Positions 5,111 to 15,714 of a stretch of DNA of 64,000 nucleotides are shown here, piece after piece. The DNA is from a virus. Taxonomy: Duplodnaviria > Heunggongvirae > Uroviricota > Caudoviricetes. How positions within the stretch are numbered: position 1 is the stretch's first letter; each line of letters begins with the position of its first letter. The translations under genes were made by a program, and so were the position numbers. The stretch is taken from positions 189,336-253,335 of IMG/VR virus record IMGVR_UViG_3300009709_000001; one strand, 5' to 3'. The notes under the pieces are model-generated. The model was not told the origin of the DNA. It worked only from the letters and a program-made list of their open reading frames with translations, and searched no databases.

Positions 5111-5680
5111 ATGCATAAGAAAACTATTCTCAAAGACATAGATGTACCTGTCAATGATCTAGATTGCTGGGAGAGATATCCGAAACATCGTTGGGTATAT
5201 GAGGCCACACGCCTGTTTGATACACAAAATATTTCGTGGTCCTTATTCAGCACAAAAGAACAAGATTCTGCTGTCAGGTGCATTGACATAGACACTGCTG
5301 AGAGCTATAAAACTGGGCAAATTTTCACAAAAACTCCAACTGGGACTCATATGTTCACAGAGGTGTTTATCGTCAAGGGCGAGATCAAACACATCAGGCA
5401 TATCGATCCCACAAGTGGAGAACTTCAATCGCAAATAATCGGAGAAATCGAGCTAAAACTCAATGCCTTCGTGACATTGCATTTTCAAAAGTTTACTGGT
5501 GTCATCACGACAGAAACTTATTCAAACGAGATTCATAGTATTCGTCTCAAACCAAAGTCAGACCTAGGCCAAGAAACAAATTTAGAAATAGTTAAACTGA
5601 TTAAGAGAATTTACAAGAAAACAGATTTAACATTAAGCGGTCTTACAGACCGTGTTTTTCATGAATCACTCGCTTCGTAA
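5111..5680 (+). CDS. Hypothetical protein, possibly a degenerate ATP-grasp-like fold
   Basis: 189-aa ORF with D..CWERYPKHRWVY and FTGVITTE motifs; fold assignment is weak. Confidence 0.5.
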   Translation: MHKKTILKDIDVPVNDLDCWERYPKHRWVYEATRLFDTQNISWSLFSTKEQDSAVRCIDIDTAESYKTGQIFTKTPTGTHMFTEVFIVKGEIKHIRHIDPTSGELQSQIIGEIELKLNAFVTLHFQKFTGVITTETYSNEIHSIRLKPKSDLGQETNLEIVKLIKRIYKKTDLTLSGLTDRVFHESLAS

Positions 5681-5699
5681 ACTACGCTCGTAATTCCTT

Positions 5700-6374
5700 C
5701 AAACAAGATGCTGCGCATCTATCAAGAACAATATTGATTGTTTTCAAACTGCCTGACGGTAGAGTCAGACCAAGGGTATCTAAAACCTAGATACTGGACA
5801 GCTTGACAGCGTCGCCAGACGTTGAACCGAAATATTTGTGCAGTGTTGGATTGATTATGTCAACTGCGCGCTACTCCCATAGCGTTTCGGAAGGGGCCTA
5901 AGATCTTGCGAGATCATACGGGCTCATCGAATGCGTAACTTTTCTTCAACGAAAAAGTTACTCGACCTGTGGGCCATACCCTGTTTTCACATACCCACAG
6001 CAACTTGATATTCATCTTAATACCGAATACACGGCTTTCTTATGAATTTGCCGATGTCTACCCATCGGGCCTGTCTATTGCGCTCCATTCCGAACGATAC
6101 GACCTGCGCTATAAAGGTGCGCTAACCTATTGTAGAATAACCGAATTGTATTGGATTTAATTAAGGATTGGGTTTTGTGCTTTCGTTGTAAAACCTAAAT
6201 GCTGTTGACCTTATACGTTCACGGGGCGCATTAGTCCCGCTATCTGTTTTTATCTGCTTTCGTGTACTATAAAACATCAGCTTTGCGCTGTTGTTACACT
6301 ATTTTAGCAGAACAAAATTGCGCTGGCTCATAATATTGAGCGCAAGCGCAAACAGGGCCCAAAGGCCCTGTTTT
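5700..6374 (+). ncRNA. Candidate large structured non-coding RNA (~680 nt)
   Basis: ORF-poor gap with more than 12 hairpins, nested long-range helices (5796-5801/6071-6076; 5827-5832/5885-5890; 6079-6086/6223-6230), G-U pairs favouring the + strand, complementary loops GGTAGA (5758-5763) and TCTACC (6057-6062); ends at a terminator. Confidence 0.7.
6350..6374. terminator. Probable bidirectional intrinsic terminator
   Basis: AAACAGGGCC-CAAA-GGCCCTGTTTT between the ncRNA region and the convergent endolysin stop. Confidence 0.7.
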
Positions 6375-6388
6375 ATCGTGTTTTACCG

Positions 6389-6973
6389 TCAGGAAAAGTC
6401 TACATCCGGATTGGTTGTGAAGTCGCGCATTTCAGAAATTCTGCGCAACCAGCCTTTTAAGAAACGACCCTGCTCGGGCTTTCTTGCAACAATGGCTTGA
6501 TAGAATTGTTCACGTTGATCGCAAATTGACATGCATAGTTCGATTTCGTCCATACTATTGACTGCGCCTAGACTTTGTGGGCCAAGAATACCATCAGTTG
6601 ACATACCGACAGCAGCCTGCAAAAATTTGTTGGCGCGACCAATTCCGTGATTTACACAACCGTCAAAGTGAAGGACTGCGACGCGCGGCGGCAGTTGATC
6701 ACAGGAACCAGTTAACCAGTATCTGCGATAATAGACATCCTTCGCCGTTGCCCAATCTAGATTGGTAATGTCAAGGTCTTGGTTAGCATTCTTTGCTACA
6801 CCATATTTTGTTTCACCACCGCGATCGAGTGGATCGTTGACATAGCCAACATTTCTTCTTTGCTGAGGAGTATCAATTAACCCCGCCTCGACTTCGGGAG
6901 TTAGACGCCACTGACTGCCAACTTCGTAAAGCATGGCATGATTCACTGCATCTTCGAACGCATTCGAGTACAT
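6389..6973 (-). CDS. Endolysin, glycoside hydrolase family 108 with C-terminal peptidoglycan-binding domain
   Basis: YVNDPLDRGGETKYGV, FDGCVNHG, DGILGPQS, FLKGWLRRI. Confidence 0.88.
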   Translation of the reverse strand: MYSNAFEDAVNHAMLYEVGSQWRLTPEVEAGLIDTPQQRRNVGYVNDPLDRGGETKYGVAKNANQDLDITNLDWATAKDVYYRRYWLTGSCDQLPPRVAVLHFDGCVNHGIGRANKFLQAAVGMSTDGILGPQSLGAVNSMDEIELCMSICDQREQFYQAIVARKPEQGRFLKGWLRRISEMRDFTTNPDVDFS

Positions 6974-7002: not shown

Positions 7003-7007
7003 AACCG

Positions 7008-7016
7008 TGATAAATA
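7008..7016 (+). promoter_or_regulatory. Late promoter TGATAAATA for the resolvase
   Basis: Recurring motif, back-to-back with the endolysin promoter. Confidence 0.6.
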
Positions 7017-7036
7017 ATGAAAACAGGGGATTTAAT

Positions 7037-7594
7037 ATGCCATCGAAATCAAAAGCAAAGGGTAACAGTTGGGAACTAGATGTCGCAAAGTTTCTCACAG
7101 AAACTTACGGTGAAACTTTCTTGCGTGTTCCAAGTAGCGGAGCGTTTGTCGGCGGCAAAAATGCTCATAGGAAAACTACTCTAGATGCTTCACAGCTTCA
7201 GAGTAAGAAGGGCGATATACACCCACCACAGTCGTGGAAACATTTTAACTGCGAATGTAAATCCTACAAAGATTTTCCATTTCACCAGTTATTCTATACA
7301 GACGTGAAAATCCTCGACTCGTGGATTCAACAGCAACACGATGTCGAGGATGTAGGTGACTTGAATATTATCTTAATTAAGATTTCAAGGAAGGAACGAT
7401 GGGTTGTTGTGCCTCAATCACTAGGTTTTGTAACCACTCGAGCCCTGGAGTATAAGGGATGGGTGTTCTTAGAATGGGATCAGTTTTGGTCTTCTTCGCA
7501 GAACGTTTCTTTGGTTGAGAAGCTTTCAAAAGACGCAACTGTTTCTTTGTTTCCTTTTCCAGTAGTTCCCGAGCCTTCTTCTCAGACCGCTTAG
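7037..7594 (+). CDS. Holliday junction resolvase (PD-(D/E)XK)
   Basis: SKAKGNSWE, RVPSSGA, GDI, ECKSY; start moved to ATG 7037 after the GGGG SD. Confidence 0.75.
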   Translation: MPSKSKAKGNSWELDVAKFLTETYGETFLRVPSSGAFVGGKNAHRKTTLDASQLQSKKGDIHPPQSWKHFNCECKSYKDFPFHQLFYTDVKILDSWIQQQHDVEDVGDLNIILIKISRKERWVVVPQSLGFVTTRALEYKGWVFLEWDQFWSSSQNVSLVEKLSKDATVSLFPFPVVPEPSSQTA

Positions 7595-8135
7595 TCTTAT
7601 AGTTTTCAAACGGCAGTTCAATATCTTGAAGAATGCCGTCAAAACCATCTACTTCAAAATCCCACCAATTAACGATAGTCTTAGCAGATACTTTTCTGTT
7701 AGGCGTACCGTCTAGGTTGAAATTAATTTCGATATTACTCGACTTAGGAATGTGAGCATATGCCGAACCCGGGATGAGAAAGAAATAGAAAGTATCTGTT
7801 AGTCTTTCGTAGATAACACATCGCAATAACCCTTTCTTATTGAAAATATCCCTAATTGGTGCAGAATATTTTGTGCCAGAAAAAGTCCATCGTACAGATG
7901 AACTTTTAGCATCAGTACCGTCGACAAAGTCTCTGCCGACGGTATCGTGTCTTTCTAATCCCTTTTTCTTTGAAATTGCAGCTTCTAGGAGCTTCCCAGC
8001 TCCGAATAATCTATGTTTAACCATGTCTTCTTCGTAAGCATGTTTTCTGATTACGGCAGACGCGTCGGGATAGATTATTGGATGTAACAATCCAAAGAAT
8101 TTTTCGTCTAGAATAGGATCTTTATCTTTTGCCAT
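7377..8135 (-). CDS. Hypothetical protein, possible PD-(D/E)XK nuclease
   Basis: LLEAAI...GRDFVDGTDAKS motif and basic C-terminus; overlaps the resolvase 3' end by 218 nt. Confidence 0.5.
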   Translation of the reverse strand: MAKDKDPILDEKFFGLLHPIIYPDASAVIRKHAYEEDMVKHRLFGAGKLLEAAISKKKGLERHDTVGRDFVDGTDAKSSSVRWTFSGTKYSAPIRDIFNKKGLLRCVIYERLTDTFYFFLIPGSAYAHIPKSSNIEINFNLDGTPNRKVSAKTIVNWWDFEVDGFDGILQDIELPFENYKTKRSEKKARELLEKETKKQLRLLKASQPKKRSAKKTKTDPILRTPIPYTPGLEWLQNLVIEAQQPIVPSLKS

Positions 8136-12759: not shown

Positions 12760-13046
12760 TGGCACAGAATTCAAAAGACACAAGTCAGTATCTATCAACA
12801 CCGATTAAGGATTGGTATCTTGACCTTTGGGTTCCACGCTCTGTTCCCAAGAGTGATTTTGACAAGATTGTTGTTATTCCTCCAGCATACGATCAGCGTC
12901 CAGATCTAATGAGCCAAGCCGAATATGGCACTCCCCGCCTGTGGTGGGTTTTCTGTATTAGGAATCCAGATTTGATCAATGATCCAATTCAGGATTTTGT
13001 TGCAGGATTAGAAATTTTCGTTCCAGCAAACATTCTAAAGAAATAA
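12759..13046 (+). CDS. Baseplate wedge protein, gp53/LysM-like
   Basis: YDQRPDLMSQAEYGTPRLWWVF..RNPD. Confidence 0.75.
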   Translation: MAQNSKDTSQYLSTPIKDWYLDLWVPRSVPKSDFDKIVVIPPAYDQRPDLMSQAEYGTPRLWWVFCIRNPDLINDPIQDFVAGLEIFVPANILKK

Positions 13047-13047
13047 T

Positions 13048-15714
13048 ATGTCCGCAAAAGATTTTATGTCGTCGACGAGTTCGTCGCTACCGTCATCGTT
13101 GCTCTCTGGTACGTCGTTTAACGATGTAGTCGCCGGCAAAACTGTCGATAAGGTAAAAGAATATCTAAATCCAGCAGGTGTTAGTCCAACCACAACATCC
13201 GGTATTCCTAAATTCGAAAAGATTGATCAATCTCCCTATTCGCACGAAGGAAATAACTATCCTAATGTTTCTGCACAATCATTTGAAACTGTTAATTTGA
13301 ATCTACAGTTTCAACCAAATGTCCTTGACAATTTTGATACTGTAACCTATCACTTTAAACTTTTCATTACCGATCCAGAGTCATCAAGCACTGGTCAAAT
13401 TTTCGATCCAGATAATCAGACAATCATTGCCGAATCTGGTGTTTCGGATTTAACAATCGATAAAGTAGAAGTTCGAAGCATTGCCACACCGACAGTAGAA
13501 ATTGGCACAGGAACTTCGACGCATGTAAAATTTGAAATTACCGAACCATCTGGTGCTGGTCTAATTGATAAACTATTCTATCAATCCGTGGCACTCGGTA
13601 TCGGAAACTGGGCAGTCATGCCAGTCTATCTACAATTACAATTCCGAGCACGTGATCCCGATACAGCATCGACTATTAATGGATCGCCCGGTTCGTTAGC
13701 TAGCCTAAAATGGATTTGGAGATTAAAACTTACCGATATCAAGGCCAACGTAACCACTGTTGGAACGAGATACGAATTTGATGCAATCATCTATAGCGAA
13801 TTTGCACAATCCAACGCTCTCTTTACCTTGCAACATAACACCACATTGAATAATTTGAAAACATTCGGTGATGCAATGAAGGATCTGCAAGATAAACTTA
13901 ATGCCGACCAATTAATCAAACTTCTCAGCAATTATAGCGTTCCAGATTCATTCAAGATCGTCGTAGATCCGAAAATTATTGGTTATCAGATTACTCCACC
14001 GGAGGCTAATACCAATTCACGAAGAGGAGACAACTTTGTCGAATTTGGTGATAAAGATGCATCCTTTAGTTCTGGCACGGCCATTAATAACGTTATCGAT
14101 TCTTTGTTATCGAATACCAATGAATACCAGGAGGCAATGAAGAAGTCCACGACGCCTGGTGCCGACGGAGTTCCAATGACTCAAGAAGGTAATCAGATGA
14201 AGAAAATTTGGAGAGTTATTACAGAAACTCGTCCATTGACTTTTGATCCTAGAAGACAGACCATTGCTAATGAATTTACGATCTATGTTGTTGATTATGA
14301 CATTGGTATTCTCGATCAGAACGTATTTCAAACTTCTGCCCCACCGCTAACACTCGAAGCAGAGCGTCAGCGCCTAATGACCTATGTTCAAAGATCTATT
14401 CTAAAGAAGAAATATAATTATATCTTCACAGGATTGAATGATCAGATTTTGAATTTCGATGTAACTATTAATGCCGGATATGCAGCCGCAATGTCACGCT
14501 TCAACGGCATCTACCTAAATCCTGTAATGTCTGATAAAGGTGTAGTAAATCAAGACCGCGCAAAGCAGGAAATCGAAGTTACAGAAAAAGTTACAAAAGC
14601 AATCGGACTTCAGAATAACGCGAAGAGTACAAATGCAGCCGATGCCCAAGCTGCTATGGAAGATGCAAAGAACGCAATTGCAGCCGCCGATATTTCGGAT
14701 GATCTAAAATCTCGTTATACCGTATTACTTGAAAAATCTAAGCCAGAAAGCAGAATGAACTTTCTCGAAGATGTACGCCAAGCTGGTGGTTTGAACAATG
14801 ACGGTAAATTAAATAGTTCCCGAGCTGACGCTCAGAACCTTGCTAAACCAGTAACTGAAAAAATTTCGAATAAGCAATATAGTTTCATTTCTGATGTTGA
14901 TCCGCAATCTAAGGCATCGAAAAATGCTTACACCAGATATGTCGAAGATACAAAAGGCAAGCTTCGTCCTATTGCAAGAATTGAAACAATGCAAGATCGT
15001 CAGATTGGTATGGGTGTTGAATCTAACAGTAATCCGGGACTGCAGAAAATTTCGTCACTCTTTTCGCAAGCACTTCATAGCGGACTTGATAGTTCATTCC
15101 AGAGAATGCGAATGACAATTAAAGGCGATCCATTCTGGTTGTTTCCACAACCTATTACTGACAACGATAGGCAATCATACAGCATTTTCAAACCAGCCGA
15201 CGAAGCAATTGATTATATCAAAAGGGCACACTTCAAGGCAACTGATTCGGTAAACATATACGGAACTGATAACTTTATTCTTGTTAGATTTAGAACACCG
15301 AGAATTTATAATCTCGATGATAATGATAACAATAATGATCCGAACACCGATGTCGAAACATTTAGCGGTGTTTATAAAGTAATCGAAATTACAAGTAGAT
15401 TTGAAATGGGTAAATTTACTCAGGAATTATTATGCAACCTTGATCCCGAAATCAGAATATTGAATTTCATCGATCAAATTGAAGCAGATGCAAGGAAACA
15501 AGATATTCCTACAAAACCGGGTGATCTAGTTGCTGAAAGACTTCCTATCCCAGAGACTGCAAAATCCAAGGATAGAATTATGGGTGCAACTGAAACTAAA
15601 CTTGAACAATTGGCATCAAGTACCGCAGGACAGATAAATTCTGCAGTTTCAAATATTCCGACTGTAATTCCGAGTACATTACCGCAATATAAGAATCTAT
15701 TCAAACAAGGGTAA
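13048..15714 (+). CDS. Baseplate hub protein (gp27-like)
   Basis: MTIKGDPFWL, FSGVYKVIEITSRFEMGKFTQEL; lies between gp53-like and gp5-like genes. Confidence 0.6.
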   Translation: MSAKDFMSSTSSSLPSSLLSGTSFNDVVAGKTVDKVKEYLNPAGVSPTTTSGIPKFEKIDQSPYSHEGNNYPNVSAQSFETVNLNLQFQPNVLDNFDTVTYHFKLFITDPESSSTGQIFDPDNQTIIAESGVSDLTIDKVEVRSIATPTVEIGTGTSTHVKFEITEPSGAGLIDKLFYQSVALGIGNWAVMPVYLQLQFRARDPDTASTINGSPGSLASLKWIWRLKLTDIKANVTTVGTRYEFDAIIYSEFAQSNALFTLQHNTTLNNLKTFGDAMKDLQDKLNADQLIKLLSNYSVPDSFKIVVDPKIIGYQITPPEANTNSRRGDNFVEFGDKDASFSSGTAINNVIDSLLSNTNEYQEAMKKSTTPGADGVPMTQEGNQMKKIWRVITETRPLTFDPRRQTIANEFTIYVVDYDIGILDQNVFQTSAPPLTLEAERQRLMTYVQRSILKKKYNYIFTGLNDQILNFDVTINAGYAAAMSRFNGIYLNPVMSDKGVVNQDRAKQEIEVTEKVTKAIGLQNNAKSTNAADAQAAMEDAKNAIAAADISDDLKSRYTVLLEKSKPESRMNFLEDVRQAGGLNNDGKLNSSRADAQNLAKPVTEKISNKQYSFISDVDPQSKASKNAYTRYVEDTKGKLRPIARIETMQDRQIGMGVESNSNPGLQKISSLFSQALHSGLDSSFQRMRMTIKGDPFWLFPQPITDNDRQSYSIFKPADEAIDYIKRAHFKATDSVNIYGTDNFILVRFRTPRIYNLDDNDNNNDPNTDVETFSGVYKVIEITSRFEMGKFTQELLCNLDPEIRILNFIDQIEADARKQDIPTKPGDLVAERLPIPETAKSKDRIMGATETKLEQLASSTAGQINSAVSNIPTVIPSTLPQYKNLFKQG

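Follow-up and report, generated by a model that had tools for sequence, protein, structure and literature searches.

The stretch of DNA analysed here, termed the window, comprises 64,000 nt (bases 189,336–253,335) of an IMG/VR phage genome that is complete at 385,394 bp and carries direct terminal repeats; positions refer to the window unless the genome is named. A gap at 5681–6388 is flanked by two convergent genes. On the plus strand, a 189-aa ORF (5111–5680) lies 3' of a T4-type baseplate hub gene, and the other flank is a minus-strand GH108/PG_binding_3 endolysin gene ending at 6389. The 189-aa product matched no Pfam or PHROG family, and a fold could not be assigned to it because its AlphaFold model was too poor (mean pLDDT 51.5). 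In all 13 loci fetched via this protein, its gene was adjacent and convergent to the RNA described below. Further along the window, a PDDEXK/RusA-like nuclease ORF (7007–7594, plus strand) overlaps an unannotated 252-aa ORF (7377–8135, minus strand) by ~220 nt, and probably at least one of the two calls is too long or spurious. Just past the window end, at ~255–290 kb of the genome, the G+C content is 0.51–0.56 as compared with ~0.40 elsewhere; this block may have been horizontally acquired.

The initial annotation had taken the gap to be non-coding, and the comparison of relatives agreed with it. No conserved ORF was found in the standard or an altered code, the longest stop-free stretches differing in strand, frame and place, and the variability by codon phase (0.202, 0.208 and 0.215) displayed no 3-nt periodicity. 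The gap is therefore a conserved non-coding element. ARAGORN detected no tRNA or tmRNA in the window, and the proposed search against Rfam (release 15, gathering thresholds) returned no family for the whole 64 kb. At E values up to 10, the sole match within 5500–6500 was the terminator-like STnc320, with 22 bits against a threshold of 50. GOLLD, ROOL, OLE, raiA, HEARO, tmRNA, RNase P, 6S, group I/II introns and the self-cleaving ribozymes all gave no Rfam 15 match, in keeping with the earlier remark that hallmarks of tmRNA, RNase P or group I/II introns were missing.

Related loci were fetched through both flanking proteins. With nhmmer, the gap was matched in 25 of them at E values of 1e-39 to 1e-74 and ~60–66% nucleotide identity; the flanking proteins in these loci were just 45–72% identical. 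Scanning with an invariant 23-nt motif retrieved 43 viral and 61 metagenome stretches. The same scan, run on 185,579 prokaryote species with one genome per species, gave no matches, and therefore no prophage copies were seen. The collection contained 92 full-length copies, 51 of them unique and 42 below 97% identity, from ~90 metagenomic phage contigs. Neither the gap (blastn) nor the neighbouring 189-aa protein (tblastn) matched any of 50,697 phage records, so no cultured relative is known. Five more distant jumbo phages (310–350 kb) had no copy of the RNA by BLAST or by covariance model R1. Judged by these searches, the RNA family is restricted to one clade of uncultured jumbo phages with genomes of ~360–385 kb. 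A full-text literature search found no description of the RNA. A large IMG/VR catalogue of candidate structured RNAs holds motifs of only 29–151 nt and therefore cannot have described the RNA as a whole (PMC10690425). This large, ornate phage RNA family is new and previously undescribed.

Covariation, coding strand and promoter

A first consensus, calculated with RNAalifold on 30 sequences, comprised 68 pairs, 44 of which had compensatory double changes. The structure was then curated on the minus-strand alignment of 42 sequences to 114 pairs, with 94.6% of the cells canonical and both-sided changes in 66 pairs. The double-change cells numbered 547, as compared with 146.5 ± 11.9 in shuffled alignments, and none of 500 shuffles reached the observed value. 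Sliding the 3' partners by 1–3 columns lowered the covariation score from 0.383 to 0.06–0.08. Compensatory substitutions thus exceeded both the shuffled and the slid controls. Several helices were 100% canonical with up to four Watson–Crick pair types, e.g. 6000–5994/5973–5967 and 5966–5962/5930–5926. By this comparative evidence, the gap holds the gene for a real, large (predicted ~545–600 nt) and highly structured ncRNA, which we named type A. The strong covariation and the lack of an Rfam match uphold the proposal of a large, ornate, undescribed ncRNA, and the covariation test suggested for homologous regions gave a positive result (66/114 pairs with double changes, 42 homologues).

Many of the helices proposed from the single sequence were found again in the family. 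GTATCTA/TAGATAC, GATCT/AGATC, GTAACTTTT/AAAAGTTAC, CTGTGGG/CCCACAG, CCGATG/CATCGG, TTGGGTTTT/AAAACCTAA, CCGAAA/TTTCGG and the CGGGG/CCCCG hairpin are conserved with compensatory changes in the 42 homologues, as is CTGAC/GTCAG, more weakly. CAGCGTC/GACGTTG, GGACAG/CTGTCT and TGCGCTCC/GGGGCGCA turned out to be copy-specific or invariant, without covariation support, and AGATGC/GCATCT (5706–5720) lies outside the conserved core. Folding energy by itself, compared with dinucleotide shuffles, was ambiguous: for 5748–6295, z was −3.05 on the plus strand and just −0.70 on the minus strand. For the whole gap (5681–6388), the plus- and minus-strand values were −5.69 and −2.68, respectively.

Orientation was assessed from the non-Watson–Crick intermediates of the covarying pairs. 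Read as minus, the curated structure contained G–U and A–C intermediates in a ratio of 491:59, and its cells were canonical in 94.7% of cases as compared with 85.2% when read as plus. The asymmetry persisted in a structure derived from the plus strand, where the covarying pairs, as read on that strand, had 70 G–U vs. 129 A–C, and in the minus-strand-derived structure of the reverse complement, which had 259 vs. 34. Each of the 42 sequences carried 8–16 G–U and 0–5 A–C on the minus strand (9 vs. 2 in the window copy). Three invariant plus-strand G–U positions are A–C on the minus strand and count against it. The plus-strand call of the initial annotation relied on the G–U pairs of one sequence; across the family, these intermediates are A–C on the plus strand and hence G–U on the minus strand. 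We prefer the minus strand because this family-wide asymmetry outweighs the folding z-scores and the three invariant positions, and the RNA is very probably transcribed from it.

The minus strand also bears a candidate sigma70-like promoter (6301–6339), seen as a TCAAnATT...TTGnnn-N17/18-TAAAAT pattern conserved upstream of the RNA in ~40 homologues. Its −10 element, TAAAAT, is at 6306–6301 with TGC before it, and a weak −35 equivalent lies at 6330–6325; in this genome the −35 sequence is poor. A conserved block, TCAATATT, occupies 6339–6332, and elsewhere in this genome TAAAATAG stands 17 nt past TTGACA-type hexamers. The promoter call rests on family conservation, since a strict sigma70 scan of 5600–6500 returned no promoter. 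From the −10 position, the start is predicted at ~6294, and the transcript, under its own conserved sigma70-like promoter, most likely runs to at least 5750.

This arrangement conflicts with two earlier suggestions. The hairpin at 6350–6374, a 10-bp stem followed by a T run, had been read as the terminator at the end of a plus-strand RNA. It is a bidirectional terminator belonging to the endolysin gene, and the conserved minus-strand promoter and the covarying 5' hairpin place it ahead of the RNA rather than within it. Co-transcription with plus-strand late genes had likewise been considered; the conserved promoter on the minus strand speaks for independent transcription. In one subfamily (L016, L022, L024, L102, L122 and L173), the promoter spacer between TCAAGA and TAAAAT holds a perfect inverted repeat with arms of 9–12 bp, and each phage has its own version of the repeat sequence. 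The members with this repeat are without the GC-rich endolysin terminator; the repeat might serve as an operator or stand in for the terminator.

Architecture of the RNA and its second paralogue

In the minus-strand reading, type A begins with a computed 5' hairpin of the AACAG..CUGUU type (6273–6295), the stem of which covaries among CAG/CTG, CAA/TTG, TAG/CTA and CAAT/ATTG. The 5' domain that follows (6171–6245; helices 1, 2, 4 and 5 of the curated structure) occurs only in type A. It contains the hairpin GCGGG/CCCGU (6240–6236 with 6225–6221) bearing the loop ACUNAYGCGC, a short ACGU/GCGU hairpin, and the helix GGUUU/AAACC (6195–6191 with 6175–6171), which encloses a variable insert. G–C to A–U double changes were observed in this domain in 15 sequences. 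The central domain (6010–6128; helices 7–11) is built of 6122–6118/6110–6106, 6103–6092/6085–6073 with a near-invariant GGCGUGUCGUUCGGAAUGGAGCGCAACAGCC, 6070–6063/6056–6050, and 6047–6042/6015–6010 around a variable hairpin; helix 10 had double changes in six of its six pairs.

The core common to both paralogues (5827–6000; helices 12–20, covered by covariance model R1) opens with helix 6000–5993/5974–5967, which bears a conserved 20-nt loop (UAUGUGAAAACAGGGUAUGG). It continues through 5966–5962/5930–5926, 5961–5953/5943–5935, 5925–5921/5898–5895 and 5915–5911/5906–5902 to 5890–5885/5832–5827, 5884–5882/5871–5869 and 5867–5863/5844–5840, the last bearing an invariant GUUGACAUAAUCAAUCCAACAC. 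Beyond the core, two direct repeats, X2' (CUGUCAAG, 5810–5803), single-stranded in the structure, and X1' (CCGUCAGG, 5759–5752), enclose the hairpin UAUCUA/UAGAUA (5778–5792; helix 21, with C–G, U–A and G–C types), after which comes an invariant GAUACCCUU. X1' is part of a 3' module (5752–5768; helix 22) made up of CUGAC (5768–5764), a loop and X1' itself. This module is the last conserved element, ending at 5752, and is followed by an A/U-rich tail. No canonical terminator was found at the 3' end of the RNA. A terminator-like hairpin, AGAUGC-GCA-GCAUCU then UGUUUG (5698–5720, stem 5720–5706), was read from the window sequence; it falls beyond the conserved core and is absent as a conserved feature from relatives, but the RNA of this particular phage may end there.

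A variant of the 3' region was seen in one subfamily (L026, L077, L003, L030, L020, L174, L095, L176, L075 and L153), where, in the segment matching 5778–5795, the UAUCUA hairpin is replaced by a ~20-bp perfect hairpin (GGGUAUCG...CGAUACCC). This hairpin sequesters the otherwise invariant AUACCC (5779–5774 in the window), for which GGGUAU (5982–5977) in the loop of the 6000–5967 helix is a possible pairing partner; the sequestration hints at alternative conformations. Two 16S-like 8–9-mers (CGUGUCGU and GAGCGCAAC) were treated as chance, since blastn against E. coli genomes gave no match.

A second copy, termed type B, was found with nhmmer and covariance model R1 on the minus strand at genome positions 12,920–13,400 (~470 nt; locus L002:1385–1870), where the 24-nt core motif recurs exactly at 13,037–13,060. 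Type B has the 3' ~430 nt in common with type A, with compensated helices, and is devoid of the 5' domain. It is bordered by a P-loop kinase gene on one side and a 118-aa ORF on the other; no lysis genes flank it, and a PhoH gene lies close by. It has no evident promoter of its own and ends beside a bidirectional terminator-like hairpin; a same-strand ORF begins 135 nt past it. Covariance model R1 detected exactly two copies in the phage's own genome. Two further complete genomes, of 364 and 369 kb, each had one A and one B, and another of 363 kb had A only. The clade's complete genomes thus usually carry two paralogues. In the three genomes with both, A and B are about half a genome apart (0.47–0.53 of the length). 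Neither the second paralogue nor the co-varying direct repeats had appeared in the earlier reading of the sequence.

The two repeats are 7–8-nt segments of the form C(Y)GUCAR, spaced 47–84 nt apart, which co-vary as direct repeats and not in complementary register. By mutual information, every X1 column is linked most strongly to its counterpart in X2. Among 46 A and B sequences, 43 have the same core tetramer in X1' and X2', a level reached by none of 20,000 shuffles. Ten of the identical cases differ from GUCA, and these are of seven kinds (GUUA, GUCG, GGCA, GGUA, GGUG, CCCA and GUGA). We found no complementary covarying partner of the repeats in the RNA or within 1.5 kb on either side, on both strands, and a search of clade-specific substitutions likewise yielded no covarying partner for the heptamers. 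The 5' hairpin loop UGACG (6233–6229) can pair with X2' as helix 3 (91% paired, no double changes), and such pairing may occur. The CUGAC arm, i.e., the 5' arm of the 3' module, is missing in several type-B copies, which means that X1' does not serve solely as one side of a hairpin. Together with the lack of a complementary covarying segment, this implies that the identity of the repeats is selected from outside the helices of the RNA.

Proposed function and alternative explanations

Our preferred explanation, to which we give a probability of roughly 0.55, is that the type-A gap encodes a minus-strand ornate RNA with its own promoter, acting as a trans-acting scaffold whose twin heptamers bind one partner. 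The RNA would operate as a decoy or as a stably folded scaffold; such a scaffold could be part of an RNP or assemble from RNA alone, in line with proposals for other large ornate RNAs. We infer action in trans because the neighbourhoods of A and B are unrelated, no same-strand gene lies downstream of A, and the conserved promoter and, where present, the terminator separate type A from the endolysin gene. The specificity elements would be the two exposed C(Y)GUCAR heptamers, kept identical to each other and varying between phages. They might provide two sites for the same partner. This could be a protein that recognises the sequence, perhaps as a dimer, or a nucleic acid complementary to it, and the partner would co-evolve outside the RNA. 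In a bolder and considerably more tentative version, a novel phage RNP or ribozyme would be built around the RNA, with the heptamers serving as programmable recognition elements, e.g. guides or decoys, and the two paralogues would represent two specificities. If so, the targets might include a defence nuclease or nucleic acid of the host or the phage, and jumbo phages would possess a novel class of large RNA programmed by sequence.

The identity of the repeats could also be read as a trace of self-processing, the heptamers being cleavage or ligation sites that release a 47–84-nt unit, or of template jumping in the manner of DRT2. Repeated cleavage or template switching does require identical direct repeats around a conserved unit. 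However, no known ribozyme family matched in Rfam. The complete 385-kb genome has no RVT_1 reverse transcriptase match, while the controls were matched; the unit length is not a multiple of three (remainders 2:21, 0:13 and 1:12); and the 47–84-nt units share no consistent stop-free frame. The template-jump model is unsupported for these three reasons, and we consider the pair of mechanisms unlikely. Co-evolving direct repeats likewise resemble iterons, read TTGAC(A/G) on the plus strand, and occur in two copies about half a genome apart, as might a DNA-level element (a replication origin or a packaging site) with incidental hairpins. Dozens of compensated helices with strand-asymmetric G–U pairs form a pattern unlike that of DNA elements, however, and the cumulative GC skew does not switch at either copy, which makes this reading highly improbable.

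Two further alternatives, both improbable, retain an RNA and change its strand or its mode of action. A plus-strand ncRNA ending at the 6350–6374 terminator, perhaps co-transcribed with the 189-aa or baseplate genes, would account for the better-than-shuffled folding of that strand (z = −5.69 for 5681–6388, −3.05 for 5748–6295), its three invariant G–U pairs, and the −10-like A/T hexamers ahead of CTGACGG in many relatives. The intermediates in the covarying helices are nevertheless overwhelmingly A–C on that strand, most relatives are without a terminator at the matching end, and the conserved elements are the minus-strand promoter and 5' hairpin, no plus-strand promoter being conserved. The RNA could instead work in cis, type A as a 3' UTR or a processing/stability element of the endolysin mRNA and type B as the 5' leader of a downstream gene. 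In 12 loci, type A comes directly 3' of the endolysin gene and shares its strand, and type B lacks an evident promoter with its same-strand ORF 135 nt on. Against the cis reading stand the promoter conserved throughout, the unrelated genes adjoining the two paralogues, and a terminator that separates the RNA from the endolysin gene in the window and in some relatives, a GC-rich terminator being absent there in the rest. Moreover, 47 further endolysin homologues have no adjoining RNA, and in L022 a ~760-nt insertion separates the endolysin gene from it.

Relation to known large RNAs

To our knowledge, few ncRNAs above 400 nt have been described from bacteria or phages; examples are OLE, GOLLD, ROOL, HEARO and raiA. 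Each known large ncRNA has led to unexpected biology, e.g. RNA-only cages and RNA-guided nucleases. The family described here offers a well-supported structure, a probable strand, a candidate promoter, a defined phylogenetic range and two paralogues per genome. Its two direct repeats, forced to remain identical, are an unusual and testable signature, and the family gives a concrete handle on the use of large RNAs by jumbo phages.

Short direct repeats bound the template in the ncRNAs of DRT2-type defence reverse transcriptases and in telomerase RNA. The type-A RNA resembles these in having two short identical repeats around a conserved segment, with their identity maintained in evolution; it differs in the absence of a phage reverse transcriptase, in a unit that is not in frame, and in being far larger, with most of its length outside the repeats. 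Like 6S and the decoy or sponge RNAs, it would be a trans-acting, stable, non-coding RNA, possibly binding a host or phage factor, but it has no 6S architecture and no Rfam match, and is three times larger than 6S RNA.

OLE and raiA are large bacterial ncRNAs that act in RNPs; both are chromosomal and lie near known partner genes, oapA/B/C in the case of OLE. Type A shares with them a large ornate fold and near-invariant unpaired stretches, which hint at contacts with protein or within the tertiary fold. In contrast to OLE and raiA, it is a phage RNA without an Rfam match, and no conserved partner gene was identified. GOLLD and ROOL are large ornate RNAs, often borne by phages or prophages, that form RNA-only homo-oligomeric cages (PMC12286853). 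The type-A RNA is likewise phage-encoded, longer than 500 nt and multi-domain, with many covarying helices and highly conserved loops, and it is intergenic with a predicted promoter of its own. Unlike GOLLD and ROOL, it matches neither Rfam model in sequence or structure and was found only in one jumbo-phage clade, with two paralogues per genome and co-varying direct repeats. Of the known RNAs, GOLLD, ROOL and the OLE-type ornate RNAs are its closest analogues.
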